NCBI GenBank assembly: GCA_036270875.1
Contig: DATBBR010000046.1
Coordinates: 9,925-73,924, forward strand
Source of the DNA: Acidimicrobiales bacterium
GTDB taxonomy: Bacteria; Actinomycetota; Acidimicrobiia; Acidimicrobiales; AC-9
Length of the DNA: 64,000 nt
Reading direction: 5' to 3'
Below, piece by piece: positions 52,982 through 63,581 of this stretch. Below the pieces are notes generated by a model that ran no database searches, was not told the DNA's origin, and saw only the letters and a program-made list of their open reading frames with translations. Positions within the stretch are counted from its first letter, which is position 1. Every line of letters begins with the position of its first letter. A program made the translations under genes and the position numbers.

Positions 52982-53043
52982 CGTCGCCTCCTCGTCCCGC
53001 GGCTTTCGAAGGGACGTCCGTGCAAGTACCCAGTGTTCCACCT

Positions 53044-53102
53044 TACGTCGAAATGGATCGCTGGCGCCCGGTGCTTTCGACATAAGGTGGAACGCGGGCA
53101 CA
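53044..53102. other. Long imperfect inverted repeat (19-nt arms, 18/19 complementary, 21-nt loop) in a lower-GC spacer
   Basis: gttccaccttacgtcgaaa (53044-53062) against tttcgacataaggtggaac (53084-53102), with a single C/A mismatch. No flanking U-tract. Confidence 0.85.
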
Positions 53103-53257
53103 ATCGAGACGGTCGCTCTTCGGCGGCCGCGGGATGCCTCGCATCGCATCTGGGGGAGGTTGCTGTCACACCTCTCGCGTACGATGCCCACGGCGCCTCG
53201 AGTGGCCGGCGCCCACACCCAGGCCCTCCCAATGGATCGCATGACCAGGGAGTAGCC

Positions 53258-54775
53258 GTGATCGCCGCCATCCCATCCGCCACCCTCTTCGGTGTCGAGG
53301 GTCGGCCAGTCGCCGTGGAGGTACACGTCTCCAACGGCCTGCCCGGGTTCACCGTCGTCGGCCTGCCCGACGCCGCCTGCAGGGAGTCGCGAGACCGCGT
53401 GCGGGCGGCCCTGCTGTCGAGCGGGCTGCCTTGGCCGCTGCGGAGGGTGACGGTGAACCTCGCCCCCTCCGGGGTCCGCAAGGGTGGCGCGGGACTCGAC
53501 CTGCCGATCGCCATCGGTCTGCTCGTCGCCAGCGGTCAGCTACCGGCCGAGGCGGTGGAGAACTGCGGTTTCCTGGGGGAGCTCGGACTCGACGGCTCGC
53601 TGCGGCGGATCCCTGGAGTCGTCGCTCTCGTGGATGCGATGTGCGTCGGTGCGGTCGTCGTGCCGGCAGCCTGCGCCGACGAGGCGGCGCTGGTTGGCCG
53701 CCACGTCGTCCGAGGGATCAGCTCGCTGTCCCAGCTCGTCGACGCCCTGCGGGGGGTGGGCCCCTGGCCGAGCGTGTCCGTTCGTCCGAGGGTGGCAGCG
53801 ACGGGGTCCCAGGAGCCGGATCTCCGCGACGTGCGCGGCCAGCGCCTCGGCCGGCGGGCGCTTGAGGTGGCCGCGGCGGGAGGTCATCACGTGCTCTTCA
53901 TCGGCCCACCGGGGTCTGGGAAGACAATGCTCGCCAGCCGGCTCGCGCCCATTCTTCCCCCACTGGGATCGGCAGAGGCCCTCGAGACGACGCGCGTGCA
54001 CTCGACTGCAGGGCTCGCCCTGTCGGGCGACCTCGTCCGGCGCTCGCCGTTCCGGGCGCCGCACCATGGCGCCTCGGACGTGTCCGTCATCGGGGGTGGC
54101 ACGTCGTGGATGCGACCGGGGGAAATCAGCCTTGCCCACAACGGCGTCCTGTTCCTCGACGAGATGGGTGAGTTTGCCGGGACGGTTCTCGAGGCCCTGC
54201 GTCAACCGCTCGAGGAGGGCGTGGTGCGAGTCTGCCGGGCTCGGGCGAGCGTGACCTTCCCCGCTCGCTTCCTGCTCGTCGGGGCCATGAACCCCTGTCC
54301 GTGCGGAGAAGGGTCGATGCCGGGTGCCTGTCGCTGCTCGGAGGCGGCGCGGGCGAGGTATGCGCGTCGTCTCTCCGGACCAGTGCTGGACCGCTTCGAC
54401 CTGCGCGTCGCGCTGAGTCGTCCCGACGTCGGGGAGCTGCTGGGCGGACCGGCAGGGGAGAGCAGCGCGGCGGTGGCCGATCGCGTGGCCCAGGCCCGGG
54501 AGCTGGCCGGCGCACGCGGCGTGCGAGCCAATGCCGGGATTCCGGCGAACCGGCTGGACGAGGTTGCACCGCTCAGCAGTGAGGCCGAGGCGTTGCTGGA
54601 ACGCCGGCTGCGATCGGGCGCGCTGAGCGCACGAGGGCTGCACCGCGTCCGGCGCGTCGCCCGTACGCTCGCCGACCTCGACGGCGCCCCACCGGTCATC
54701 GGAGCGGGGCAAGTGGCCGCGGCCCTCGAGCTGCGGGTGGCCTTCACGGCGCTGGCACCGTCGCTGGCGTCATGA
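53258..54775 (+). CDS. comM: Mg-chelatase-like AAA+ protein ComM/YifB
   Basis: GTG behind AGGGAG. FTVVGLPDAACRESRDRV, GPPGSGKTMLA, LFLDEMGEF. Confidence 0.93.
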   Translation: MIAAIPSATLFGVEGRPVAVEVHVSNGLPGFTVVGLPDAACRESRDRVRAALLSSGLPWPLRRVTVNLAPSGVRKGGAGLDLPIAIGLLVASGQLPAEAVENCGFLGELGLDGSLRRIPGVVALVDAMCVGAVVVPAACADEAALVGRHVVRGISSLSQLVDALRGVGPWPSVSVRPRVAATGSQEPDLRDVRGQRLGRRALEVAAAGGHHVLFIGPPGSGKTMLASRLAPILPPLGSAEALETTRVHSTAGLALSGDLVRRSPFRAPHHGASDVSVIGGGTSWMRPGEISLAHNGVLFLDEMGEFAGTVLEALRQPLEEGVVRVCRARASVTFPARFLLVGAMNPCPCGEGSMPGACRCSEAARARYARRLSGPVLDRFDLRVALSRPDVGELLGGPAGESSAAVADRVAQARELAGARGVRANAGIPANRLDEVAPLSSEAEALLERRLRSGALSARGLHRVRRVARTLADLDGAPPVIGAGQVAAALELRVAFTALAPSLAS

Positions 54776-55911
54776 GCGGCGCTGTGTCAGCCAACGAGGC
54801 CACGGAGGTCGACAGGCTCGCAGCGGCCGCGCTGGCAGGGCTGCCGAAGATGAGCTTCGGTCGGCTTCGCGCCCTGCTCGCGGCCGCCCCAGCGGCAGCG
54901 GCCTGGGCTGGGGTGGCGGAGGATCGGGGCTTCGTGCCGCGCGCTCTCGGTGGGGATACCGCTGCGTTCGCTGGTGACTGGGCGAGCGCGGCGCGACGGG
55001 TCGACCTGGCCGCGATAGGCCGGGCCCATCAGGCCGCCGGCGTCGCGGTACACCTGCTCGGGGACGCCGACTATCCCTCGGTGCTGGCGGACGACCACGA
55101 GGCACCAGCCGTGCTGTTCTCGCGCGGCGACCTCGGCGCCCTCACAGGGCCCATCGTCGCCGTCGTGGGTACACGCTCAGCGACGCACTACGGCCAGGAC
55201 GTCGCCGCCGAGCTGTCGCGCGACCTGGCCCGGGCGGGCGTCGTCGTTGTCTCCGGCCTCGCCCTGGGTATCGACGCCGCTGCTCATCAAGGCGCGCTAG
55301 CCGCGACAGGCGCGCCGCCAGTGGGTGTGGTCGCGTCGGGCCTCGACGTCGTCTACCCCAGCCGCAACGCCCGGTTGTGGGACCAGGTGGCGACGAGGGG
55401 CACCTTGTTGTCCGAGTCCCCGCTCGGGACGACAGCTGCGGCCTGGCGCTTTCCGATGCGCAACCGGATCATCGCCGCCATCGCCCAGGTCGTCGTGGTC
55501 GTCGAGGGCCATCGCCGTAGTGGCGCGCTGCACACGGTCGAGGCCGCGATCGAGCGGGGGAGACTCGTGATGGCCGTCCCCGGCTCGGTGCGCAGTCCGG
55601 CCTCCGAGGGGACCAACGCTCTGCTGGCCGACGGATGTCAACCGGCTCGGGACGCCGACGACGTGTTGGTCGCGGTGGATCTGGAGCGGACCGGGCGCTC
55701 GACGACTCCGACTCCTCCACGGGGTGCCGAGCTCGGCGAAGACGAGAGAGCCACGTTGAACGCCCTCGACTGGCAGCCCACGGGGACCGACGAGGTCCTG
55801 CGGCGGACAGGGATGCCGCTGGGCGAGGTGGCGGTCATCCTCGACCGGCTGGAGGAGGCTGGTCTGGCCCGAGGAGGACCCGGCTGGTGGGAGCGACGTC
55901 GGCGTCGGTGA
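54772..55911 (+). CDS. dprA: DNA processing protein DprA/Smf
   Basis: ATGA overlap with the comM stop. VVSGLALGIDAAAHQGAL, C-terminal winged-helix-like tail. Confidence 0.92.
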   Translation: MSGAVSANEATEVDRLAAAALAGLPKMSFGRLRALLAAAPAAAAWAGVAEDRGFVPRALGGDTAAFAGDWASAARRVDLAAIGRAHQAAGVAVHLLGDADYPSVLADDHEAPAVLFSRGDLGALTGPIVAVVGTRSATHYGQDVAAELSRDLARAGVVVVSGLALGIDAAAHQGALAATGAPPVGVVASGLDVVYPSRNARLWDQVATRGTLLSESPLGTTAAAWRFPMRNRIIAAIAQVVVVVEGHRRSGALHTVEAAIERGRLVMAVPGSVRSPASEGTNALLADGCQPARDADDVLVAVDLERTGRSTTPTPPRGAELGEDERATLNALDWQPTGTDEVLRRTGMPLGEVAVILDRLEEAGLARGGPGWWERRRRR

Positions 55912-55939: not shown

Positions 55940-57136
55940 TCAGCGGGACCCAGTGAGCACGAGGGCGCCGACGGCGGCGACCATCGACAGGGGCACGGCC
56001 ACAACGCCGAGGCGAGCTGCCTTGGCGAGTGACGGGCGCGCCCCGGCGGCTCGAGCCGCCCGTAGCCAGAGAATCCACGCCAGGGAGCCGGTCACGAAGA
56101 GGTTCGGTCCGATATCGAGCCCGACCAGCAGGGCGAATGGGTGGGGTGGCACCCGGGCGGCGAGCAGGGACGCCGCCGGCAGGTTGTTGACAAGGACTGA
56201 CGTCCCGGCGGCGACGAACGCCGTAGCCCACACATCGAGATGCGACAAGGCCATCGCCGGGCCCGACCAGGCCCGACCGAGGACACCGAGTGCGACCGCC
56301 ACCCCGAAGAGCCCGACGAGCACCGGGAGCCCTAGCGTGTCGAGTGTCGGCCCCAAGCGTTGCCTTCGCCCGACGCACCGAAGGGCGACGCCGACGAAGC
56401 CGACGAGGGCAACGGGAATGGCGGGGGACCTCAGGACCAGCACCAGCAGCGTGGCTGCCACAACCGCGGCAAGACCGATCCCGAGCACCGGCCGTTCCGG
56501 GCTCGTGAGCTCGCGGGCGGTCACCCGGAGCGACCGTCGCTCGAAGACGACGACGACGGCACCGGTCACTGCCAAGGCGGCGAGCCACGCCAGCCAGGTG
56601 TGGGCGAGGAACCTTCCCCCTGAAATGTGCAGGTGACCGAGGACGATGAGGTTCGTCAGGTTCGAGCCCGGCAAGAGGAGGGAGCCGGCATTGGCGAGCA
56701 GGAGACAGGCATAGACGAGGGGAGTTGCGTCGCTCTCCCCTCGGCTCCTGGCGGTGTAGACGAGGACAGGGGTCAGAAACACCACCGCCGTGTCGAGATT
56801 GAGGATCGCCGTCACGACGCCGACCACGACCGCCCCACCGACGAACAAGGCCAGGCCGCTTCGAGCGGTCCGGGCGAGCTGGTGGCCTGCGGCCGAGAAC
56901 AGGCCGTCGTCCTCCGCCACGCGACCGACGAGGAGAAGACCCGTGACGAGGACGAACGGCGACCAGTCCTGCGCTGCCGCCAACCTGGCGTCGAGAGGAT
57001 GAGTCGCGGCCGCGACCAGCGCGCCGGCGGCGCCCACCGCTGCCAACAGCCAGCCGAGCGGCAACCCGGGCCCAGCGTGGGGGTCCCGCTGCGGGGCCCT
57101 GTCCACCGAGCAAACGCTACACCTGGCTCTCGACAC
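55940..57136 (-). CDS. ArsB/NhaD-superfamily permease (anion/citrate transporter-like)
   Basis: LLLPGSNLTNLIV and more than 8 hydrophobic helices. The start is uncertain (GTG 57136 or GTG 57106). The upstream part of the 538-aa track ORF overlaps the divergent gene and is rejected. Confidence 0.8.
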   Translation of the reverse strand: MSRARCSVCSVDRAPQRDPHAGPGLPLGWLLAAVGAAGALVAAATHPLDARLAAAQDWSPFVLVTGLLLVGRVAEDDGLFSAAGHQLARTARSGLALFVGGAVVVGVVTAILNLDTAVVFLTPVLVYTARSRGESDATPLVYACLLLANAGSLLLPGSNLTNLIVLGHLHISGGRFLAHTWLAWLAALAVTGAVVVVFERRSLRVTARELTSPERPVLGIGLAAVVAATLLVLVLRSPAIPVALVGFVGVALRCVGRRQRLGPTLDTLGLPVLVGLFGVAVALGVLGRAWSGPAMALSHLDVWATAFVAAGTSVLVNNLPAASLLAARVPPHPFALLVGLDIGPNLFVTGSLAWILWLRAARAAGARPSLAKAARLGVVAVPLSMVAAVGALVLTGSR

Positions 57137-57232
57137 ATCAACGACGATTGCGCTGTGAGATGCGGTCGCCTTCGAAGAGTCGTACGGTCTGACCTGTCGA
57201 CACTGCCGACGGACCGGCGAGGGAGGAGCGCC

Positions 57233-60200
57233 ATGAGCGGTGTGCACGAGACGGCGAGTGGCGCGACGGCTGCCGCTGGTCAAGGGCGATTGGCTCAGCT
57301 CATCGCGGCTCGCGGAGGAAAGGCGGAGCCAGAGGCTCCGTTCGTGATCGAGCACCGGGAAGCGCTGATCTACATGCTCTGCGAGGCGGCGGAGCTCGAG
57401 CACGGCATCATGTGCCAGTACCTCTTCGCCGCCTTTTCCCTCAAGCAGAGCGAGGACGAGGGCCTGAGCGCGACGGAAGTCGACGCCGCCCGGCGCTGGC
57501 GGGGGGCCGTCGCCCACGTGGCCACCCAGGAGATGCTCCACCTCGCGCTCGTCCACAACCTGCTGTCAGCAGTGGGCGCCGCGCCGCACCTGGCCCGGCC
57601 CAACCTGCCGCAGCCCCTCGATCACTATCCCGCCGGCGTGCAGCTGGCCTTGCTGCCATTCGGGGAGCAGGCGCTCCGGCATTTCATGTTCCTCGAGCGC
57701 CCCGAGGGCATGGAGCTCGAGGACGCCGACGGCCTGAGGGCGATGGGCAGGGCGGAGCCGGTTCTGGAGGAGGGCGACATCGTGCCCAGGTTGCAGGACT
57801 TCGCCACCGTCGGTCACCTGTACCGGTCGATCGAGCAGGGCCTCGCCCATCTGGCGGACAAGTACGGCGAGGAGGGCCTGTTCGTGGGGCCCGCCGAGGC
57901 CCAGGCGACCACCGCGAGCTTCCGCTGGCCCGAGCTGGTCGCGGTGACCGACCTCGGCTCGGCCCAGCAGGCCGTCGACACCATCCTCGAGCAGGGCGAG
58001 GGCCCGAGGGGCGAGTGGCGAACTGCCCATTTCGGACAGTTCGTCGAGGTGCTCGACGAGTTCTTGCAGATGAAAGAGGCCAACCCGGGCTTCGACCCGG
58101 TCCGTCCCGTGATGGCGGCCAACTGCCGCCAGCCGGAGCGCCACGTCGCGGTGCCGCTCATCACCGACGTGCTGACCGCAAAGTGCACCGACCTGTTCAA
58201 CGTCGGCTACGAGATCCTGCTCCAGACCTTCGAGCGGTACTTCGCCCACACCGAGGAGACCGACGCGCAGCTGGCCACACTGGCCGATGCGACCCTGGCG
58301 CTGATGTTCCAGGTCATCAAGCCCCTAGGTGAGCTGATCACGACCCTTCCCGTGGGACCCGGCTTCGATGGCAAGACGGCGGGTCCCAGCTTCGAGCTGT
58401 TCTACGAGAGCGACTACCTGATGCCCCACCGCTCGGCGGCGTGGGCGCTGCTCGCCGAGCGCCTGGACGAGGCGGCCATGCTGTCTGGACAGATCGCCTC
58501 GGAGGCGGGCGGGCGGGTAGCCGACAGCCTGGCCCCGGTCGGTGCCGCCTTGTCGGACACGGCCCAATCGCTGAAGGACCACTTCTCGGACTGGGGCGCT
58601 CGTCCCCGAGCCACTCCGGACGTGGCGCCCGCAGCCGAAGCCGACGGCGACGGCGAACGCGAGGAGCTGGCGTCCTTGCGCGCCCGCGCCGATCAGTTGT
58701 CGCAGGCAGTCCGCGGTGCCGCCATCGGGGAGGTCCGGCGCGAGCTGGCGACGTTGTTCGACGGTGCCGTTCGGCTTACGAGAGCGGTCGTTGCCGGCGC
58801 TGACGACTTCGAGACCGGACAGGCGCGTGCGGTGGCCGCCCGACTGGTCGACAGCGTCCTGCGTCCGCTTGCAGACATCCTCGCCCCGGCGTCCGAGGGA
58901 GGGTCGGGGCGCGAAGAAGACCGCCCCGTCGCGGCCGAGGGCCCGGTGCGCGATCAAGCGTGGCAACTGGCCAAGGAGGCGACCCGGCTGTGCAGCCGTC
59001 TCAGCACGGATTCGGCGGCGAGGCGTGCCGTGCTCGAGGCGACCGCAGCGTTGCAAGATCTCGCCTGCCAGCTCGATCCGGATGAGGCTGACGCCCGGAC
59101 GGAAGAGCTGCGGAGCCTGCAGGCCCGCATGGCGCCCGGGATCGAGCCCGCACCCGACGGTCCGTACCTCGTGACCAACGCCGAGAGCCTGCGTAGCTGG
59201 CTCGGAGAGGCAATCCCATCCCGCCCGACGATGGCGCTGTGCCGGTGCGGCGGCTCGGCCATGAAGCCGTTCTGCGACGGCACCCACGCCACGAACGGGT
59301 TCACCGCAGCCAAGGATCCGAAGCGGGTCCCTGACCGCCGTGACACCTATGTGGGCCAGCAGGTGACGATCCTCGACAACCGGGGAACGTGCCAGCACGC
59401 GGGCCTGTGCAGCGACCGCCTGTCGACGGTCTTTCGGACCGACCAGGAGCCCTTCGTCGCACCCAGCGGGGGCCGCATGGACGAGATCATCCGGGCCGTC
59501 CGGGACTGTCCCTCGGGGGCGCTCAGCTACGCCATCGACGGCGGGGAGGCGCGCGACCGCGTCGACTGGGACAACCGCCGGGAGCCGTCCATCGAGGTCT
59601 CCAAGGACGGTCCCTACCGCATCACCGGCGGGATCGCCCTCGTGAGAGACGACGGCGCTGACGTGGCGCGCAACGCTGGGGCGTCGTACGAGCACTACGC
59701 CCTGTGCCGCTGCGGCCACTCACAGAACAAGCCGTTCTGCAGCGGCATGCACTGGTACGTGGACTTCCATGATCCCGCTTTCGACCCCGACCGCGAGCCG
59801 ACGATGTTCGAATGGTGCGGCGGCCTTCCTGCCCTCACCAGGATGACCCGGCTGTTCTACGAAAGGTATGTGCCCGAGGACGCGCTGCTGGCCCCACTGT
59901 TCGCCAACATGTCGGCCGACCACCCGCAACGGGTGGCCAAGTGGCTGGGCGAGGTGTTCGGCGGACCCCCGGCGTACAGCGAGGAATTCGGGGGCTACAC
60001 GCGGATGGTGCATCAGCACATCGGCAAGGGCCTCACCGAGGAGAAGCGCGCCCGCTGGGTCACGCTCATCCTCCGTTCGGCCGACGAGGCTGGGATGCCG
60101 AGAGATCCCGAGTTCCGCTCCGCCTTCGCCTCCTACATCGAGTGGGGATCGCGCCTCGCTCTCGAGAACTCCCAGGCTGGCGCCGAGCCTCCCGAGCACA

Positions 60201-60535
60201 TGCCCATGCCTCATTGGAGCTGGGGCACCGCCGGCCCTCCGGGCGGTAGGGTCTCAGCCGTGCCCTCTGCGGATGCCGGCGACGAGCCACCGGCGGCCTT
60301 GCCCACTTCCGACGAGACGGTGAGCTTCGCCAAGCACATCAAGCCGCTGTTTCGCGACCGCGACCGGCAATCGATGAAATTTGCCTTCGACCTCTGGTCC
60401 TTCGACGACGTGGGCGCGCGAGCTGACGACATCCTCGAGCGCCTGCGGAACGGGTCGATGCCGTGCGACCGAGCGTGGTCGGAGGAGAAGGTGCAGGTCT
60501 TCCAGCGCTGGATCGACTCGGGCAAGACTGCCTGA
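57233..60535 (+). CDS. 1100-aa multidomain metalloprotein: ferritin-like di-iron domain + helical linker + CDGSH + divergent-4Fe-4S-like + CDGSH-like + truncated haemoglobin + conserved C-terminal module
   Basis: GGGAGGAG SD 4 nt upstream of the ATG. AAELEH and TQEMLH (ExxH x2). CRCGGSAMKPFCDGTH (59240-59287). GTCQHAGLC...CPSGALSY. CRCGHSQNKPFCSGMH (59705-59752). Globin segment LTRMTRLFYERY...YTRMVHQHIGKG. Confidence 0.85.
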   Translation: MSGVHETASGATAAAGQGRLAQLIAARGGKAEPEAPFVIEHREALIYMLCEAAELEHGIMCQYLFAAFSLKQSEDEGLSATEVDAARRWRGAVAHVATQEMLHLALVHNLLSAVGAAPHLARPNLPQPLDHYPAGVQLALLPFGEQALRHFMFLERPEGMELEDADGLRAMGRAEPVLEEGDIVPRLQDFATVGHLYRSIEQGLAHLADKYGEEGLFVGPAEAQATTASFRWPELVAVTDLGSAQQAVDTILEQGEGPRGEWRTAHFGQFVEVLDEFLQMKEANPGFDPVRPVMAANCRQPERHVAVPLITDVLTAKCTDLFNVGYEILLQTFERYFAHTEETDAQLATLADATLALMFQVIKPLGELITTLPVGPGFDGKTAGPSFELFYESDYLMPHRSAAWALLAERLDEAAMLSGQIASEAGGRVADSLAPVGAALSDTAQSLKDHFSDWGARPRATPDVAPAAEADGDGEREELASLRARADQLSQAVRGAAIGEVRRELATLFDGAVRLTRAVVAGADDFETGQARAVAARLVDSVLRPLADILAPASEGGSGREEDRPVAAEGPVRDQAWQLAKEATRLCSRLSTDSAARRAVLEATAALQDLACQLDPDEADARTEELRSLQARMAPGIEPAPDGPYLVTNAESLRSWLGEAIPSRPTMALCRCGGSAMKPFCDGTHATNGFTAAKDPKRVPDRRDTYVGQQVTILDNRGTCQHAGLCSDRLSTVFRTDQEPFVAPSGGRMDEIIRAVRDCPSGALSYAIDGGEARDRVDWDNRREPSIEVSKDGPYRITGGIALVRDDGADVARNAGASYEHYALCRCGHSQNKPFCSGMHWYVDFHDPAFDPDREPTMFEWCGGLPALTRMTRLFYERYVPEDALLAPLFANMSADHPQRVAKWLGEVFGGPPAYSEEFGGYTRMVHQHIGKGLTEEKRARWVTLILRSADEAGMPRDPEFRSAFASYIEWGSRLALENSQAGAEPPEHMPMPHWSWGTAGPPGGRVSAVPSADAGDEPPAALPTSDETVSFAKHIKPLFRDRDRQSMKFAFDLWSFDDVGARADDILERLRNGSMPCDRAWSEEKVQVFQRWIDSGKTA

Positions 60536-60555: not shown

Positions 60556-61512
60556 TCACTGACCCGGGCGCGAGCCGAGCAGGGCGGTGCCGAAGTCGGT
60601 GCTGCCGTGGTCGTAGGCCCGATCGGGGTCGGCCCGGACTCTCGAGTCCTGAGCCTTGGCGTCGTCGCCGACGAGGATCCGCCAGCGTCCCGCCCGCACG
60701 CCGTCCAGGATGATCGTCGCCGCCTCGGCGGCGGTGAGTGGTGCGCTGTCACGGAAGCCCTCGACCATCATCTTGACGATCTGGCGCAGCTGGTCAGCCG
60801 AGATGTCGTCCGCCGGGAGGCCCCGCATGGCCATCTGGTCTCGCATCTGCTCGAGGTCGGCGTCGGGGATCTCCTCCGGCTCGGGGCTGCCGAGGATGCG
60901 CCGGGAGTTGACCACGATGTCGGTCCCGATGTGGCCGGGCATCACGACCGCGACCTTGACGTGTGGCGCGTGGATCCTGAGATCCTCGATCAGGGCCTCG
61001 GAGAACCCCTTCACCGCGAACTTGGCCGTGCTGTAGGCCGTGTGGGGGACGCCGGGACCGAGCGACGCCCAGAATCCGTTCACGCTGCTGGTGTTGACGA
61101 GGTAGCCGTCGTCGCTGGCGATCAACAGGGGCAGGAATGCTCGGGTGCAGTAGTAGACACCCCACCAGTCGATGGCGAAGGTCCGCTCCCAGGCCGCCCG
61201 CTCGTCGGCGATGAAGCTGCCGCCTCCTCCGATGCCGGCGTTGTTGAACACCAGGTTCACGTGGTCGGTTGCGTGCTGGCTCGTCACCTCGTCACGAAAG
61301 CTCTGGACGTCGGCCTCGACCGAGACGTCGCACACGTGCGTCGTGATCCGGCTCCCGGCTGGGGCGCGTCCGGCCGTCTCGCTCACACCGGCGGGGTCGA
61401 TGTCGCAGGTGGCGACCGCGCATCCCTCGGCTGCGAGCTGAAGCACCAGCTCCCGTCCCATGCCGGAGGCGCCTCCGGTGACAACGGCCAACTTCCCGGC
61501 AAACGAGTCCAC
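60556..61512 (-). CDS. Short-chain dehydrogenase/reductase (SDR)
   Basis: GTG 61512. KLAVVTGGASGMG, NNAG, YSTAKFAVKG (YxxxK). The upstream 233 codons of the track ORF are rejected. Confidence 0.9.
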   Translation of the reverse strand: MDSFAGKLAVVTGGASGMGRELVLQLAAEGCAVATCDIDPAGVSETAGRAPAGSRITTHVCDVSVEADVQSFRDEVTSQHATDHVNLVFNNAGIGGGGSFIADERAAWERTFAIDWWGVYYCTRAFLPLLIASDDGYLVNTSSVNGFWASLGPGVPHTAYSTAKFAVKGFSEALIEDLRIHAPHVKVAVVMPGHIGTDIVVNSRRILGSPEPEEIPDADLEQMRDQMAMRGLPADDISADQLRQIVKMMVEGFRDSAPLTAAEAATIILDGVRAGRWRILVGDDAKAQDSRVRADPDRAYDHGSTDFGTALLGSRPGQ

Positions 61513-61595
61513 GCTCGAGCTCCACGCCCTTCCGGGCCGGCCTTGGGGCCGGCGGTCCTGGGTGAGCCACCGTAGGCGGGCTCGACCCGGTCGGG

Positions 61596-63581
61596 CTAGT
61601 GGCAGAGGCCGCAGGGCGCGGCGAGCGACGCTGCCGGGGCCAGGGGCAGCTCGACGAAGGAGGCCGCCCTCGCGTTGCGCTGGACCTGGTACGCGCCCCC
61701 GACGAGATTGGCCAGCTGCGCCGGGGTGGGACCGAGGTGGGGGGTGTCCGACGTCGTGACCGTGACGCGGAGGCGGTGCCCGGGAGCGAGCACGGCGACG
61801 GTCGGGAAGACCTCGACGTCGAATCGCGTCACCGAGCCGGTCGTCACCGGCGTGGCGGAGGCCTGCGTGTACGGGTGGTACGGAAGGAGCGGCACGCCAC
61901 CGGATCCGTACCAGCTCTTCCCCGCGTCCACGGCCCGGAACGAGCCCAGCAGGGCTCCCGCCGTCAGGGGCGTGGAGGCGCCGCTCGGCGCCACGTCCTC
62001 CACGGTCGCCACCCACTCCGCGTCCTTCGTCGTCGAGGTGGCGTAGATGGTGGCGTCGATGGGGCCGCCCAGGACGGTCGGCGTGCCGAAGGCGCCGGTC
62101 GTGTAGGTGAGCGCGTTCGGCCCCGTCTGCAGCGCTCGGTCGTCGGTCGTGCAGGGGTCGCCCGGAAGGCCGGCTGAGGTGGTGGCCAGCGACAGCGCGC
62201 CCATGCTCCACTGCTCGGACTGGCGGTCGCAGGGGTTCGTGGCCCCCGTGAAGAGCACCGGGTCAGATCCGCTGCTCGCGGCCGGCCGGCCGGGCCGAAG
62301 GGTGCCGTCGTTGGTCGAGGGCGCCGACGACCCCGAGGGTCCGGCGGACAGGTAGTAGGTGGTCGGCCGGGCCTGGGGAAGCGGCCACGTGGCGGCGTCG
62401 GTCCAGCGGTTGGATCCCAGCTGGAAGAGATGGAGTGGCGTCCTGGTCTGGCCCATGCCCGTGGGCTCGCCCCGCAGCCAGGTGTCGAACCATTCGAGCT
62501 GGACGCGATGGAGGTCGACTCCCTGTCCGGCGGTCAGGTGGTACCAGGGACCCATCATGAGCTGGTAGCGGCCCGTCACGGGCTGGTCGGCTCGCATGGG
62601 GGCCCCGACAGGTCGGTGGGCCCAGGCGTTCTGGAGACCGGCATAGTTGAGCGGCTCGCCCCGCTGGAACAGGTCGTACCAGCCCCCCACGAGGAAGGCC
62701 GGGATGCCGTCGGAGACGATCTTGGAGAGCACGTCCGCCGGGTTGCGCGCCGCCCAGTAGGCGCCGTCGTAGGCCTGGTCTCCGCCGCTCTCGGTGTTCG
62801 CCAGGCTGGCGGCGTGGTACGTGGCCAGGCCCTGGGCGTGCTGGGCCTCGACGCTTGCCAGAGTGGCGCCGCTGCCGCTGTTGGGCGCGGCGGCGCTCTC
62901 CAAGGGCGGGTTGGCCATGTTGAGCGCCCCCGTCAGGCCCAGGTAGAGCCCGCCGAACTCGGTGTCGGGGATGCCGCCCTGGAGTGCGGTGTCCCGGTAG
63001 ATGTCGTCGGCGGAGATGACGGGGAACAGCGCCTTGACCGGTGAGCCAGGGCCGAGACGGGCGGCGGTGAGGAACTGGTTGATGCCCATGTAGGACTCGC
63101 CGAACAGGCCCACTGCACCGGTCGAATGGGGCAGGCGGGCCACCCAGCGGACCAGAGCGGCCCCGTCGCTGGCCTGGGCCGGGTCGAACAGGCCCCAGCT
63201 GCCGCCCGAGTCGCCGGTGCCCCGGACGTCGGCCACGACTTCGAGGTAGCCGCGCTGGACGAAGTACGAGTCGCCCAGGGCCTCCTTGCCGTAGGGGGTC
63301 TGGGTCAGGAGCACCGGGAACGGTCCCGGCGCGGCCTTGCCGGTCGCCGGATCGGTCGGGAAGTGGACGTCGACGCGAAGCACGGTGCCGTCGGCCATGG
63401 TGACCCCGACGTTGCTCGTGCTCCCGACGCCGTACGTCGCCGCTTCGGGCTGCCACGCGGGCGGCGCCGCGCCGGCAGCAGCCGACGCGGCACCCGGGAC
63501 GGCGGCTCCGGCAGCAACCACGATGGCGGCGACGGCGATGACGACCAGGCCCCGCCACCGCCGCACCTCGGTCCCCACCAC
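61596..63581 (-). CDS. Secreted CocE/NonD-family (S15 X-Pro dipeptidyl-peptidase-like) hydrolase
   Basis: GTG start. Signal peptide LVVIAVAAIVVAAGAAVPGAASA. LTQTPYGK, DVRGTGDSGG, GESYMGINQ. Confidence 0.9.
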   Translation of the reverse strand: MVGTEVRRWRGLVVIAVAAIVVAAGAAVPGAASAAAGAAPPAWQPEAATYGVGSTSNVGVTMADGTVLRVDVHFPTDPATGKAAPGPFPVLLTQTPYGKEALGDSYFVQRGYLEVVADVRGTGDSGGSWGLFDPAQASDGAALVRWVARLPHSTGAVGLFGESYMGINQFLTAARLGPGSPVKALFPVISADDIYRDTALQGGIPDTEFGGLYLGLTGALNMANPPLESAAAPNSGSGATLASVEAQHAQGLATYHAASLANTESGGDQAYDGAYWAARNPADVLSKIVSDGIPAFLVGGWYDLFQRGEPLNYAGLQNAWAHRPVGAPMRADQPVTGRYQLMMGPWYHLTAGQGVDLHRVQLEWFDTWLRGEPTGMGQTRTPLHLFQLGSNRWTDAATWPLPQARPTTYYLSAGPSGSSAPSTNDGTLRPGRPAASSGSDPVLFTGATNPCDRQSEQWSMGALSLATTSAGLPGDPCTTDDRALQTGPNALTYTTGAFGTPTVLGGPIDATIYATSTTKDAEWVATVEDVAPSGASTPLTAGALLGSFRAVDAGKSWYGSGGVPLLPYHPYTQASATPVTTGSVTRFDVEVFPTVAVLAPGHRLRVTVTTSDTPHLGPTPAQLANLVGGAYQVQRNARAASFVELPLAPAASLAAPCGLCH

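Follow-up and report, generated by a model that had tools for sequence, protein, structure and literature searches.

What kind of protein would join a ferritin-like domain, two CDGSH clusters, a further iron-sulfur segment and a truncated haemoglobin in one chain, and is such a chain real? This question was raised by a gene on the forward strand of a 64,000-nucleotide stretch of DNA from an Acidimicrobiales bacterium (the window; contig DATBBR010000046.1). The gene encodes a protein 1100 aa long, with a frame that is open from an ATG at 57233 to the TGA stop codon ending at 60535 (57233..60535, + strand) and that is uninterrupted, as a first-pass annotation had stated. Upstream of this ATG the frame continues open to a GTG at 56627. 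The closest orthologues begin at the identical methionine (MSGVHETA or MSGAQEAV) and the homologues are 1058-1128 aa long, so we assign the start to the ATG at 57233. It is preceded by a conserved 5' leader (57160..57232, + strand) containing a Shine-Dalgarno sequence, GGGAGGAG (57221-57228); the approximately 70 nt directly before the ATG are common to the window and the closest orthologues, L006 and L078. This leader matched no Rfam family, and a sigma-70-type consensus was not found in it.

The unusual length of the protein and a high-GC frame that stays open upstream of the ATG are all that speaks for an artefact in which separate genes were fused through a frameshift or an assembly error. 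We found more than 120 full-length colinear homologues with 55-87% identity in independent assemblies drawn from JGI, ENA, NCBI and Logan as well as in cultured Nocardia and Trebonia. The gene was also placed at 80 distinct genomic loci, isolates with complete genomes among them, and conservation is even across the domain borders. Thus, the long frame was not produced by a frameshift or by a faulty assembly, and an artefact, which we regard as practically inconceivable, is refuted by these homologues and loci. This is a single real gene.

A Pfam scan placed all of the domains named in the first-pass annotation in the order given there, with four families above their gathering scores: Ferritin-like (PF12902), zf-CDGSH (twice), Fer4_19 and Bac_globin. 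The motifs that it had quoted are all present, and nearly all of them are invariant across 121 aligned sequences; the motifs concerned are E54xxH57, E100xxH103, C670/C672/C681/H685, C825/C827/C836/H840 and F875-Y876. Pfam and NCBIfam scans detected no FAD/NAD(P)H (flavin or reductase) domain in the chain, and nothing that could serve as an output domain, such as a kinase, a cyclase or an HTH. With no FAD/NAD(P)H reductase fused to its globin, the protein falls outside the flavohaemoglobin-type NO dioxygenases.

The N-terminal ~430 aa are one domain made from two four-helix bundles. The first bundle (aa 27-300; 57311..58132, + strand) matches PF12902 over aa 50-273 (E 3e-40; 138.8 bits versus a cut-off of 22.3) and contains the candidate di-iron ligands E56, H57, E100, H103, E155, E256 and H266 and a candidate haem ligand, M101. 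The second bundle (aa 301-460; 58133..58612, + strand) is degenerate and is formed by AF2-predicted helices at 313-337, 344-369, 400-425 and 427-448, with pLDDT mostly above 90. Across 81 representative clusters of the PF12902 family with 34-73% identity, the invariant residues are E56, H57, Y63, E100, M101, H103, N109, E155, Y197, E256, H266, Y326 and M358, the last two in the second bundle, together with QGEG; the window protein has every one of them. Foldseek matched the domain to 3HL1, a solved PF12902 member, with E 6.5e-5 over 336 columns, and a profile match to the same protein gave E 1.3e-6. A test for internal duplication of the domain was not significant (E 0.54).

The ferritin-like four-helix region with two ExxH motifs that had been described from the sequence is therefore present, but its fold is different from that of a plain di-iron ferritin. 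The window protein has no match to Pfam Ferritin even at E<=1. E155, E256 and H266 lie outside the canonical ExxH positions, and they are candidates for the remaining E, E and H of an EEHEEH set by position rather than by alignment. What had been called a linker of about 230 aa is in part conserved structure: residues 274-460 belong to the second bundle, and only residues ~465-635 are an Ala/Arg/Glu-rich helical spacer.

Profile comparisons showed that the N-terminal domain and the C-terminal domain of StaD, RebD and VioB, the chromopyrrolic-acid (CPA; iminophenyl-pyruvate dimer) synthases, are homologues. A profile built from stand-alone family members matched, with E 2e-65, the last 400 aa of a StaD/RebD-type protein encoded in an indolocarbazole gene cluster, and the second bundle is included in this homology along its full length. 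Every invariant residue is kept in that match except H57, which is Leu there. The C-terminal ~400 aa of StaD, RebD and VioB are the same domain as aa 27-430 of the window protein and keep E56, E100-M101-x-H103, E155, E256, H266, Y326 and M358. These three are haem b-dependent oxidases and VioB shows catalase activity (PMC3640393, PMC10851217, PMC9705886). Unlike the window protein, they carry an extra N-terminal region of ~590-650 aa, are located in tryptophan-dimer gene clusters and have no iron-sulfur, globin or C-terminal module. The VioB/StaD/RebD equivalog model TIGR04492 scored 65.9 bits against a cut-off of 1250, with only model positions 587-938 matched. The window gene does not lie in a cluster that combines a tryptophan oxidase with tailoring enzymes; L093 contains a true cluster of this kind.

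More distantly, the domain is related to TmDFLP (9VIW), which the same profile matched with E 3e-8 in two colinear stretches covering both halves. The similarity is confined to helices A-B and A'-B', and the second stretch alone is non-significant (i-E 0.82). In this alignment E56, E100, M101, H103 and M358 correspond to E17, E47, M48, H50 and M198. TmDFLP is an encapsulin-associated, haem-binding double ferritin-like ferroxidase that forms no cage and has two 100% conserved Met residues as putative haem ligands (bioRxiv 10.1101/2025.09.13.676036). Both proteins have two four-helix bundles per chain, the first with a di-iron site (a candidate site here) and the second degenerate, and the E..(7)..Y and E-M-x-H spacings are identical. 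M101 and M358 are an invariant Met pair that aligns with the putative TmDFLP haem ligands, one Met per bundle, at what appear to be the haem-ligand positions of bacterioferritin. By contrast, the window protein has an insertion of ~80 aa in its bundle, its remaining ligands are at non-canonical positions, it has no encapsulin context, and it carries extra iron-sulfur and globin domains. We conclude that the N-terminal domain is a double bundle of the VioB/StaD type that probably binds haem in addition, and that the list of cofactors is probably longer than first proposed.

With 3864 clusters (50% identity, E<1e-3), the family of this domain is a large one, and its members occur alone or fused to a CDGSH-Fer4_19-CDGSH (CDC) block, to Fer4_19 plus two CDGSH, to a Rieske domain or to an N-terminal Fer4_19. 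Three unrelated iron-sulfur folds have thus become fused to the family independently, as one would expect of a domain that has to be supplied with single electrons. Because the family is repeatedly fused to different iron-sulfur modules, the iron-sulfur part is most likely the built-in ferredoxin of the N-terminal domain.

In the window protein the two parts are separated by the helical spacer (aa 465-635; 58625..59137, + strand), which has no Pfam match, a mean identity to homologues of 33% and an A+R+E+L+D content of 64%. Despite this weak conservation, AF2 modelled it as a confident bundle of six helices with high pLDDT. The spacer may keep the core and the iron-sulfur block too far apart within one chain, and if it does, electron transfer might need a dimer. 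CDC-fused relatives of ~660 aa have no spacer.

The iron-sulfur block begins with CDGSH domain 1 (aa 636-700; 59138..59332, + strand; ligands C670, C672, C681 and H685), a [2Fe-2S] domain. The two zf-CDGSH copies together gave E 6.5e-32. The three Cys of domain 1 are invariant, and position 685 is His in 61 of 121 sequences and Cys in the other 60. The next domain (aa 706-767; 59348..59533, + strand) is a Fer4_19/DUF1271 mono-cluster ferredoxin-like domain (E 4e-17; 62.4 bits versus a cut-off of 24), which corresponds to the segment first described as 4Fe-4S-like. It has only three Cys (C720, C726 and C759, followed by P760), all invariant in the 121 sequences, so the predicted cluster may be either 3Fe-4S or 4Fe-4S. 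An invariant H722 stands beside S/A723 (Ala here), which occupies the usual position of the second ligand. CDGSH [2Fe-2S] domain 2 (aa 785-845, best Pfam stretch 792-841; 59585..59767, + strand) has the variant motif CSGMH and the ligands C825, C827, C836 and H840; these residues, together with S837 and M839, show little or no variation in the 121 sequences, and phmmer matched the domain to the type-4 CISD 3TBM with E 1.6e-8.

Both CDGSH motifs carry a 3Cys-1His set and, at 670-685 and 825-840, they flank Fer4_19, an arrangement that defines subtype CDC of the type 7 CISDs. This subtype, CDGSH-DUF1271-CDGSH, has no assigned function (Lin et al. 2011, PMC3174974), and architectures with CDGSH and Ferritin-like domains were also recorded without a function (PMC5859297), in agreement with what the first-pass annotation had stated. 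The order of domains and the type-4-like CDGSH units are the same as in the published proteins. Those are free-standing, ~200 aa long and of unknown function, whereas here the block has an enzyme-type domain on one side and a globin on the other, domain 2 has the fixed variant CSGMH and the fourth ligand of domain 1 is Cys in half of the homologues.

The block is followed by a group II truncated haemoglobin (aa 855-982; 59795..60178, + strand) that matches Bac_globin over aa 857-954 (E 1.8e-9; 38.3 bits versus a cut-off of 21). Sequence searches of the PDB returned 2BMM, 5D1V and 1UX8, and Foldseek gave TM scores of 0.84-0.88 to these trHbO structures, as expected for a 2-on-2 fold. The Phe-Tyr pair at B9-B10 is F875-Y876, with Y876 kept in 118 of 121 sequences, and W942 at G8 is kept in all 121. 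The proximal His in RMVHQH is the second one, H929, which aligns with F8 of Thermobifida fusca trHbO and is kept in 111 of 121; H927 is Ser in most homologues. The domain shares its fold, Tyr B10, Trp G8, His F8 and Gly-Gly hinges with trHbO of T. fusca, Mycobacterium tuberculosis and Bacillus subtilis. The known proteins are single domains of ~130 aa without a dedicated reductase, whereas this one is covalently joined to an iron-sulfur chain. The predicted redox centres of the whole chain number six: a di-iron site, a bis-Met haem, two [2Fe-2S], one [3Fe/4Fe-4S] and a globin haem.

The C-terminal end of about 75 aa, to which no name could first be given, contains a recognizable helical module of ~70 aa (aa 1030-1097; 60320..60523, + strand; AF2 pLDDT 79-95), and indeed no Pfam model matches it. 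Its profile matched residues 660-743 of AsqI (PDB 5YY2) over the full length with E 3.2e-9, and the invariant L-F, D1044, M1048, D1053-L1054, M1076-P1077, W1082, F1090 and W1093 are the same L-F, D, M, D-L, M-P, W, F and W found there. AsqI is a haemocyanin-like cyclopenase (PDB 5YY2/5YY3; PMC6053404), unlike the window protein a fungal enzyme with a type-3-copper fold; that paper does not discuss residues 660-743. A Foldseek search started from the module's AF2 model did not retrieve AsqI. In P0123, P0197 and P0155, all of which have neither CDC nor globin, the module directly follows the N-terminal domain. The module therefore travels with that domain.

The function that we consider most likely, at about even odds, is that of a cytoplasmic, stand-alone, multi-cofactor oxidoreductase with intramolecular electron transfer that acts on O2, H2O2 or NO, with cofactor occupancy, electron direction and substrate all predicted. 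The predicted cluster and haem ligands are conserved in 121 homologues. The catalytic core would be the VioB/StaD-type "double ferritin" domain (aa ~27-460), in which the carboxylate/His site of the first bundle (E56, E100, H103, E155, E256 and H266, plus H57) could suit two irons, and M101 and M358 appear to be placed to sandwich haem b as in bacterioferritin. The CDGSH-Fer4_19-CDGSH block, with two [2Fe-2S] and one [3Fe-4S] or [4Fe-4S] cluster, would be a ferredoxin carrying single electrons to or from this core, and the globin, whose haem may bind O2, NO or H2O2, would form the opposite end of the wire. The globin appears to be an addition of the ~1100-aa lineage, and the small AsqI-type module to belong with the N-terminal domain; the globin may act as a catalytic end, as an O2 store or as a regulator. 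Electrons would travel inside the chain, with the globin haem at one end of their path and the bacterioferritin-like haem/di-iron site at the other. One of these ends would reduce the oxidant (O2, H2O2 or NO), and the other would oxidise a substrate (Fe2+ or a small molecule) or take electrons from a general cellular donor. Rubrerythrin and flavohaemoglobin, whose catalytic centres are a di-iron four-helix bundle and a globin haem, are functional analogies only: there too a catalytic metal centre is fused to its own electron-delivery domain, but there is no sequence relationship, and the window protein has neither a rubredoxin Cys4 site nor a FAD/NAD(P)H domain.

The nearest alternative, unlikely in our judgement, is an iron-handling protein that acts as a single-chain analogue of bacterioferritin and its ferredoxin Bfd. 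The N-terminal domain would oxidise Fe2+ as a ferroxidase or free bound iron, with electrons shuttled by the iron-sulfur wire and the haems and passed from the globin haem to O2. Homology to TmDFLP, a haem protein whose ferroxidase activity was demonstrated by experiment, is consistent with this, as are the E-M-x-H motif shared with bacterioferritin-type sites and the parallel between the fused [2Fe-2S] domains and bacterioferritin-associated ferredoxin (bioRxiv 10.1101/2025.09.13.676036). Yet only PF12902 and not Pfam Ferritin is matched, TmDFLP itself has no cage and there is no sign of a storage cavity here, the neighbours examined include no iron-uptake or iron-regulated genes, and by score the closest characterised relatives are the StaD/VioB oxidases rather than ferritins. 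That same relationship could suggest secondary metabolism, in which the domain, whose homology with the C-terminal part of CPA synthases is clear, would oxidatively couple a small molecule with the iron-sulfur and globin domains as helpers. This is quite improbable given the score far below the VioB cut-off, the missing VioB/StaD N-terminal region, the housekeeping genes that surround the gene with no biosynthetic cluster in any locus examined, and the wide distribution described below.

A sensor of O2, NO or redox state, as first suggested, is equally doubtful. In this view the protein would change its conformation when the globin binds a ligand or the CDGSH clusters are oxidised, and would thereby signal to another protein. 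Globin-coupled sensors are established, CDGSH clusters are redox- and pH-labile, and the C-terminal module could serve as a docking surface. However, an output domain is lacking, no partner gene is conserved across the 80 loci, the C-terminal module accompanies the N-terminal domain even without a globin, and the largest and best-conserved part is the enzyme-type domain. The replacement of the labile His of CDGSH domain 1 by Cys in half of the homologues suits a stable relay better. An internal electron-transfer path, also part of the first proposal, is the best reading and is strengthened by the independent fusion of the ferritin-like family to three iron-sulfur folds.

The gene is widespread among soil actinobacteria. 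Its architecture occurs in at least 80 species-representative genomes from several actinobacterial orders, and probably in a few hundred such genomes. It is thus common and its parts are already labelled by public annotation; no characterisation of the 1100-aa architecture was found in the literature searched. The gene's neighbourhood in the window comprises comM, dprA and genes for a permease, an SDR and an S15 peptidase. The divergent pairing with the ArsB/NhaD-type permease, which the first-pass annotation had pointed out, is incidental, as it is not conserved even in a syntenic orthologue with 82% identity. Even the most frequent neighbour is present at no more than 11 of the 80 loci, none is conserved around the shorter relatives and no conserved reductase gene was found near the locus. 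This absence of conserved neighbours fits a self-contained unit.

A more specific and rather improbable version of the internal electron-transfer path is a self-sufficient oxidase or NO dioxygenase with six redox centres, in which the bacterioferritin-like end would oxidise Fe2+ or a small substrate and the CDGSH wire would feed turnover at the globin. If this is true, a truncated haemoglobin would for the first time have a natural reductase partner, and both the type 7 CDGSH proteins and, beyond bisindole biosynthesis, the large PF12902 family would gain their first functions.

A + strand open reading frame in the window runs from ATG 57233 to TGA 60535 and encodes an 1100-aa protein that joins ferritin-like, iron-sulfur, and globin parts. 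The sequence GGGAGGAG is situated 5-12 nt 5' of this ATG. Upstream of it the same frame is free of stop codons back to GTG 56627; long stop-free upstream frames are frequent at ~70% GC. Because the start Met has the same position in the closest orthologues and homologues span 1058-1128 aa, we take ATG 57233 to be the start. A homologue search of 5.8 billion proteins gave 1354 matches, and the best 120 of these are all ~1060-1128 aa long (61-85% identity), nearly all with the same four Pfam domains. Their source labels are 'CDGSH-type Zn-finger protein/truncated hemoglobin YjbI/ferredoxin' or 'ferritin-like domain-containing protein'. Species-representative genomes contain at least 589 stretches coding for a relative, where a single gene may yield two stretches. 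The best 80 are distinct loci, nearly all full length, from Acidimicrobiales (83-87% identity), Solirubrobacterales, Pseudonocardiaceae, Streptosporangiaceae, Jatrophihabitantaceae, and one Dormibacterota MAG, and they include the isolates Nocardia concava, N. terrae, Nocardia spp., and Trebonia kvetii. The identity to the Acidimicrobiales loci makes this order the probable source of the window. Given the full-length homologues and the 80 loci, a frameshift or assembly join is practically excluded, and the single intact polypeptide described in the first-pass annotation is authentic. One MAG orthologue (L033 6001-7320) has an in-frame stop in the ferritin-like region, which may reflect a pseudogene or a sequencing error.

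The domains named from the sequence alone were all recovered by a Pfam scan, in which four families passed their gathering scores: Ferritin-like PF12902 (aa 50-273, E 3e-40), two copies of zf-CDGSH (E 6.5e-32), Fer4_19 (aa 706-767, E 4e-17), and Bac_globin (aa 857-954, E 1.8e-9). Every part is a known domain and the combination is already annotated by public pipelines. The combination is also abundant, and therefore the window gene is no unique oddity. In the literature searched we found no study of a CDGSH-globin or ferritin-like-CDGSH-globin (truncated haemoglobin) fusion; two surveys of CDGSH proteins list such architectures without further treatment (PMC3174974, PMC5859297).

We modeled the protein with AlphaFold2 using 119 sequences (mean pLDDT 80.5). 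Residues 40-455 form one confident all-helical domain, and six confident helices were predicted for aa 473-629, within the Ala/Arg/Glu-rich spacer, despite 33% conservation. The CDGSH and Fer4_19 parts had medium confidence, which fell to low values at the cluster loops, as would be expected of a model made without cofactors. The globin and the final 70 residues were confident. Foldseek searches of the PDB matched the model to 3HL1 (E 6.5e-5, 336 columns), a structural-genomics entry for the Caulobacter 'ferritin-like protein' CC_0557, and to many group II truncated haemoglobins (TM 0.84-0.88).

Ligand conservation was read from an alignment of 121 sequences. In the ferritin-like domain, E54, E56, and H57 (AELEH, helix A) and E100, M101, and H103 (EMLH, helix B) are nearly invariant. 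The three Cys of the first CDGSH motif (C670, C672, C681) show no variation, and its fourth ligand, residue 685 (codon 59285-59287), is His in 61 sequences, including the window protein, and Cys in the other 60. This split suggests that the first CDGSH cluster is a fixed electron relay. A His-to-Cys ligand change in mitoNEET has reportedly been engineered and studied, and the split at residue 685 is its natural counterpart. Fer4_19 has only three Cys (C720, C726, and C759, the last followed by P760); H722 is invariant and residue 723, the usual place of the second ligand, is Ser or Ala. This C-x2-X-x2-C...CP pattern would fit a 3Fe-4S cluster, or a 4Fe-4S cluster with a non-Cys ligand. The second CDGSH motif is fixed as the variant CSGMH with C825, C827, C836, and H840 invariant. 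In the globin, Y876 (B10) and W942 (G8) are conserved. The RMVHQH segment proposed from the sequence does contain the proximal His, but alignment to T. fusca trHbO places it at the second His, H929, and the first, H927, is mostly Ser in homologues.

We searched all 1.84 billion representative proteins with HMMER using aa 27-460, here called the N-domain. The search gave 3864 clusters at E<1e-3, of which 647 reached E<1e-30. Family members fall into three length classes of ~410-450 aa (the majority), ~650-800 aa, and ~1090-1250 aa. Among representatives scanned with Pfam, the N-domain occurs alone (P0131), followed by CDGSH-Fer4_19-CDGSH, the arrangement that we call the CDC block (P0139, P0159, P0168), with Fer4_19 and two CDGSH (P0158), with a Rieske [2Fe-2S] domain (P0132), and behind an N-terminal Fer4_19 (P0254). 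Since three unrelated FeS folds have been fused to it independently, the N-domain would be expected to work with one-electron carriers and the CDC block to be its ferredoxin; these fusions are the strongest evidence for such a pairing. Across 81 clusters (34-73% identity), strict conservation among polar residues is seen at E56, H57, Y63, W89, E100, M101, H103, N109, E155, Y197, E256, H266, Y326, and M358.

A profile of 46 stand-alone members matched two PDB entries, 9VIW (E 3e-8) and 3HL1 (E 1.3e-6). The former is TmDFLP, a 'double ferritin-like protein' with two four-helix bundles in one chain that forms a homodimer, binds haem sub-stoichiometrically, and has ferroxidase activity (bioRxiv 10.1101/2025.09.13.676036). 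Its bundle 1 has a di-iron site formed by E17, E47, H50, E92, E122, and H125, its bundle 2 has a degenerate site, and its 100%-conserved M48 and M198 are at the places of the bacterioferritin haem ligands (bioRxiv 10.1101/2025.09.13.676036; 9VIW SEQRES numbers are the paper's plus 10). In the profile alignment, E56 of the window protein falls on E17 and E100/M101/H103 on E47/M48/H50. M358 falls on M198, in a second aligned stretch that is weak on its own (i-E 0.82). The bundle-2 iron-ligand positions are occupied by G325, L357, and Q360 in the window protein. When the two halves of the N-domain were compared by hhalign as a test for internal duplication, the match was not significant (E 0.54), although the best alignment again pairs M101 with M358.

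The only NCBIfam match of the window protein was a partial one to VioB (aa 27-387 on model positions 587-938; 65.9 bits versus a cut-off of 1250). A tblastn search of plasmids identified a 1079-aa 'VioB' gene in Nocardiopsis flavescens (L093 5036-8275, on the 185-kb plasmid CP054934.1) that is flanked by genes for an FAD oxidase, an FAD monooxygenase, a P450, and a glycosyltransferase, a complete indolocarbazole-type set. Residues 653-1059 of this StaD-like protein cover the whole N-domain profile (E 2e-65). It retains E56, Y63, E100-M101-x-H103, N109, E155, Y197, E256, H266, Y326, and M358, whereas H57 alone is changed, to Leu. RebD and StaD are haem-dependent or haem-containing CPA synthases (PMC3640393, PMC10851217) and VioB is an enzyme with haem b that shows catalase activity (PMC9705886). 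The Met pair and the acidic and His residues of the StaD-like protein suggest where CPA synthases may bind haem. We infer a bacterioferritin-like double bundle for the N-domain, in which one di-metal site would be complete and a bis-Met haem site is predicted between the bundles, a reading that probably extends to the bisindole synthases.

The C-terminal segment that could not be named from the sequence (aa ~1030-1097) indeed has no Pfam model and no Foldseek match. It is a separate domain of ~70 aa (window 60320-60523), which we call the C-module. An HMM of the module showed that it immediately follows the N-domain in three shorter proteins lacking the spacer, CDC block, and globin: P0123 (554 aa, 68% identity in the N-domain), P0197 (500 aa), and P0155 (513 aa). 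This direct succession assigns the C-module to the N-domain; spacer, CDC block, and globin look as if they were inserted between the two. Conserved positions are L-F, D1044, M1048, D1053-L1054, M1076-P1077, W1082, F1090, and W1093; Cys1078 (MPCD) varies in distant C-modules. A profile that includes distant versions matched aa 660-743 of AsqI (PDB 5YY2/5YY3; E 3.2e-9), and a word-indexed search with this AsqI segment gave no match. The fungal cyclopenase AsqI is zinc-dependent and haemocyanin-like, and its description is silent on the terminal region 660-743 (PMC6053404). Speculatively, di-metal enzymes may use the C-module as an accessory cap. A resemblance of the C-module to a haem-less cytochrome c or PSCyt1 domain was not supported, with no Pfam match among 36+3 members at E<=10 and no Foldseek match. 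A putative stand-alone C-module gene, P0272, is in fact part of a fused gene, mis-called as a separate one. Among the candidates checked, the only one that looks genuine encodes 80 aa (L086 6001-6243) and is located 145 nt 3' of a gene (L086 4279-5856) for a secreted 525-aa protein that has no Pfam match and carries a C-terminal CMKCH motif of haem c type.

A leader of ~70 nt (window 57160-57232) is kept among the closest orthologues. It has no Rfam match to a riboswitch or known RNA, and no sigma-70 consensus promoter was found upstream of the gene. Two orthologue loci (L006 and L078) have an additional ~150 nt upstream with the palindromes TTGTCAAATGACAA and AACAACTGGTTGTT, which are not in the window, and a third (L008) carries GTCGATGACAA as four or five direct repeats immediately 5' of the ribosome-binding site. 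Orthologues from Streptosporangiaceae, Trebonia, and unclassified actinobacterial MAGs (L032, L034, L041, L053, L059-L061, L066, L070-L072, L076, L082) have in common a promoter-like block, GCAGCTCrATGTTCATCGAGGGCTCAATCCTAAC, mostly ~70-80 nt 5' of the start (40 nt in L070 and L071), that is absent from the window. Of 75 upstream regions, 15 contain the 8-mer TGTTCATC, which all of the coding controls lack. An operator common to all orthologues was rejected, as the motifs are clade-specific only.

Divergent from the fusion gene is a CitMHS/ArsB-type permease gene (55943-57115, − strand), with comM/yifB (Mg-chelatase-like) and dprA beyond it (within 53033-55911). Downstream are a convergent SDR gene and an S15 (CocE/NonD-type) peptidase gene (60556-63581). 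The MAG locus of an 82%-identical orthologue (P0005, locus L002) retains comM, dprA, SDR, and peptidase, but has a DUF4344 gene at the permease's place; further orthologues examined have unrelated neighbours. The divergent pairing with the permease noted in the first-pass annotation is therefore not conserved there or elsewhere, and a functional pairing was rejected. When all ORFs of the 80 loci were clustered, with alternative-frame ORFs inside the fusion gene set aside, no neighbour family occurred in more than 11 loci; recurrent ones included NERD, CysS, MFS, epimerase, and LysS. Stand-alone and CDC-fused relatives likewise had no conserved operon partner and lie among housekeeping genes.

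The protein thus has a conserved enzyme-type domain that bears the signatures of a di-metal site and a Met pair, an FeS block of three clusters whose kind has been joined to this domain repeatedly, and a group II globin in which the haem pocket residues are intact, and it lacks partner genes. We propose that the globin haem and the bacterioferritin-like haem/di-iron centre would exchange single electrons through the FeS block, and that one terminus would react with O2, H2O2, or NO. No characterised system known to us has a bacterioferritin/VioB-like centre wired via a CDGSH-Fer4_19-CDGSH chain to a truncated haemoglobin. We give this general mechanism an even chance. Neither a flavin nor an NAD(P)H domain is part of the chain; the electrons could come from a general ferredoxin system or from a substrate oxidised at one end.

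Of the characterised relatives, StaD/VioB are oxidases (with catalase activity reported for VioB) and TmDFLP is a ferroxidase. The ferroxidase points to a more specific version of the relay in iron handling, but the genomic context has no iron-related genes and we regard this version as unlikely. A VioB-like biosynthetic role would follow from kinship with the bisindole enzymes; the gene cluster context is absent, making this role quite improbable. We think just as little of a redox sensor, since an output domain is absent and the natural His-to-Cys change in the first CDGSH favors a stable relay.

The fusion joins three common, poorly understood families in one chain. We know of no function for prokaryotic CDGSH proteins and of no physiological reductase for group II truncated haemoglobins. 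To our knowledge, only the StaD/VioB branch of the PF12902 'ferritin-like' family, which has thousands of clusters, has been studied, and the family has no structure-based mechanism. Experiments are feasible because the fusion gene occurs in culturable Nocardia and Trebonia, and the protein is widespread among soil Actinomycetota. The fusion pattern leads to a directly testable proposal, in which the PF12902 domain forms a bacterioferritin-like di-iron/haem centre and a ferredoxin module feeds it. If true, this would also account for the haem in StaD, RebD, and VioB.
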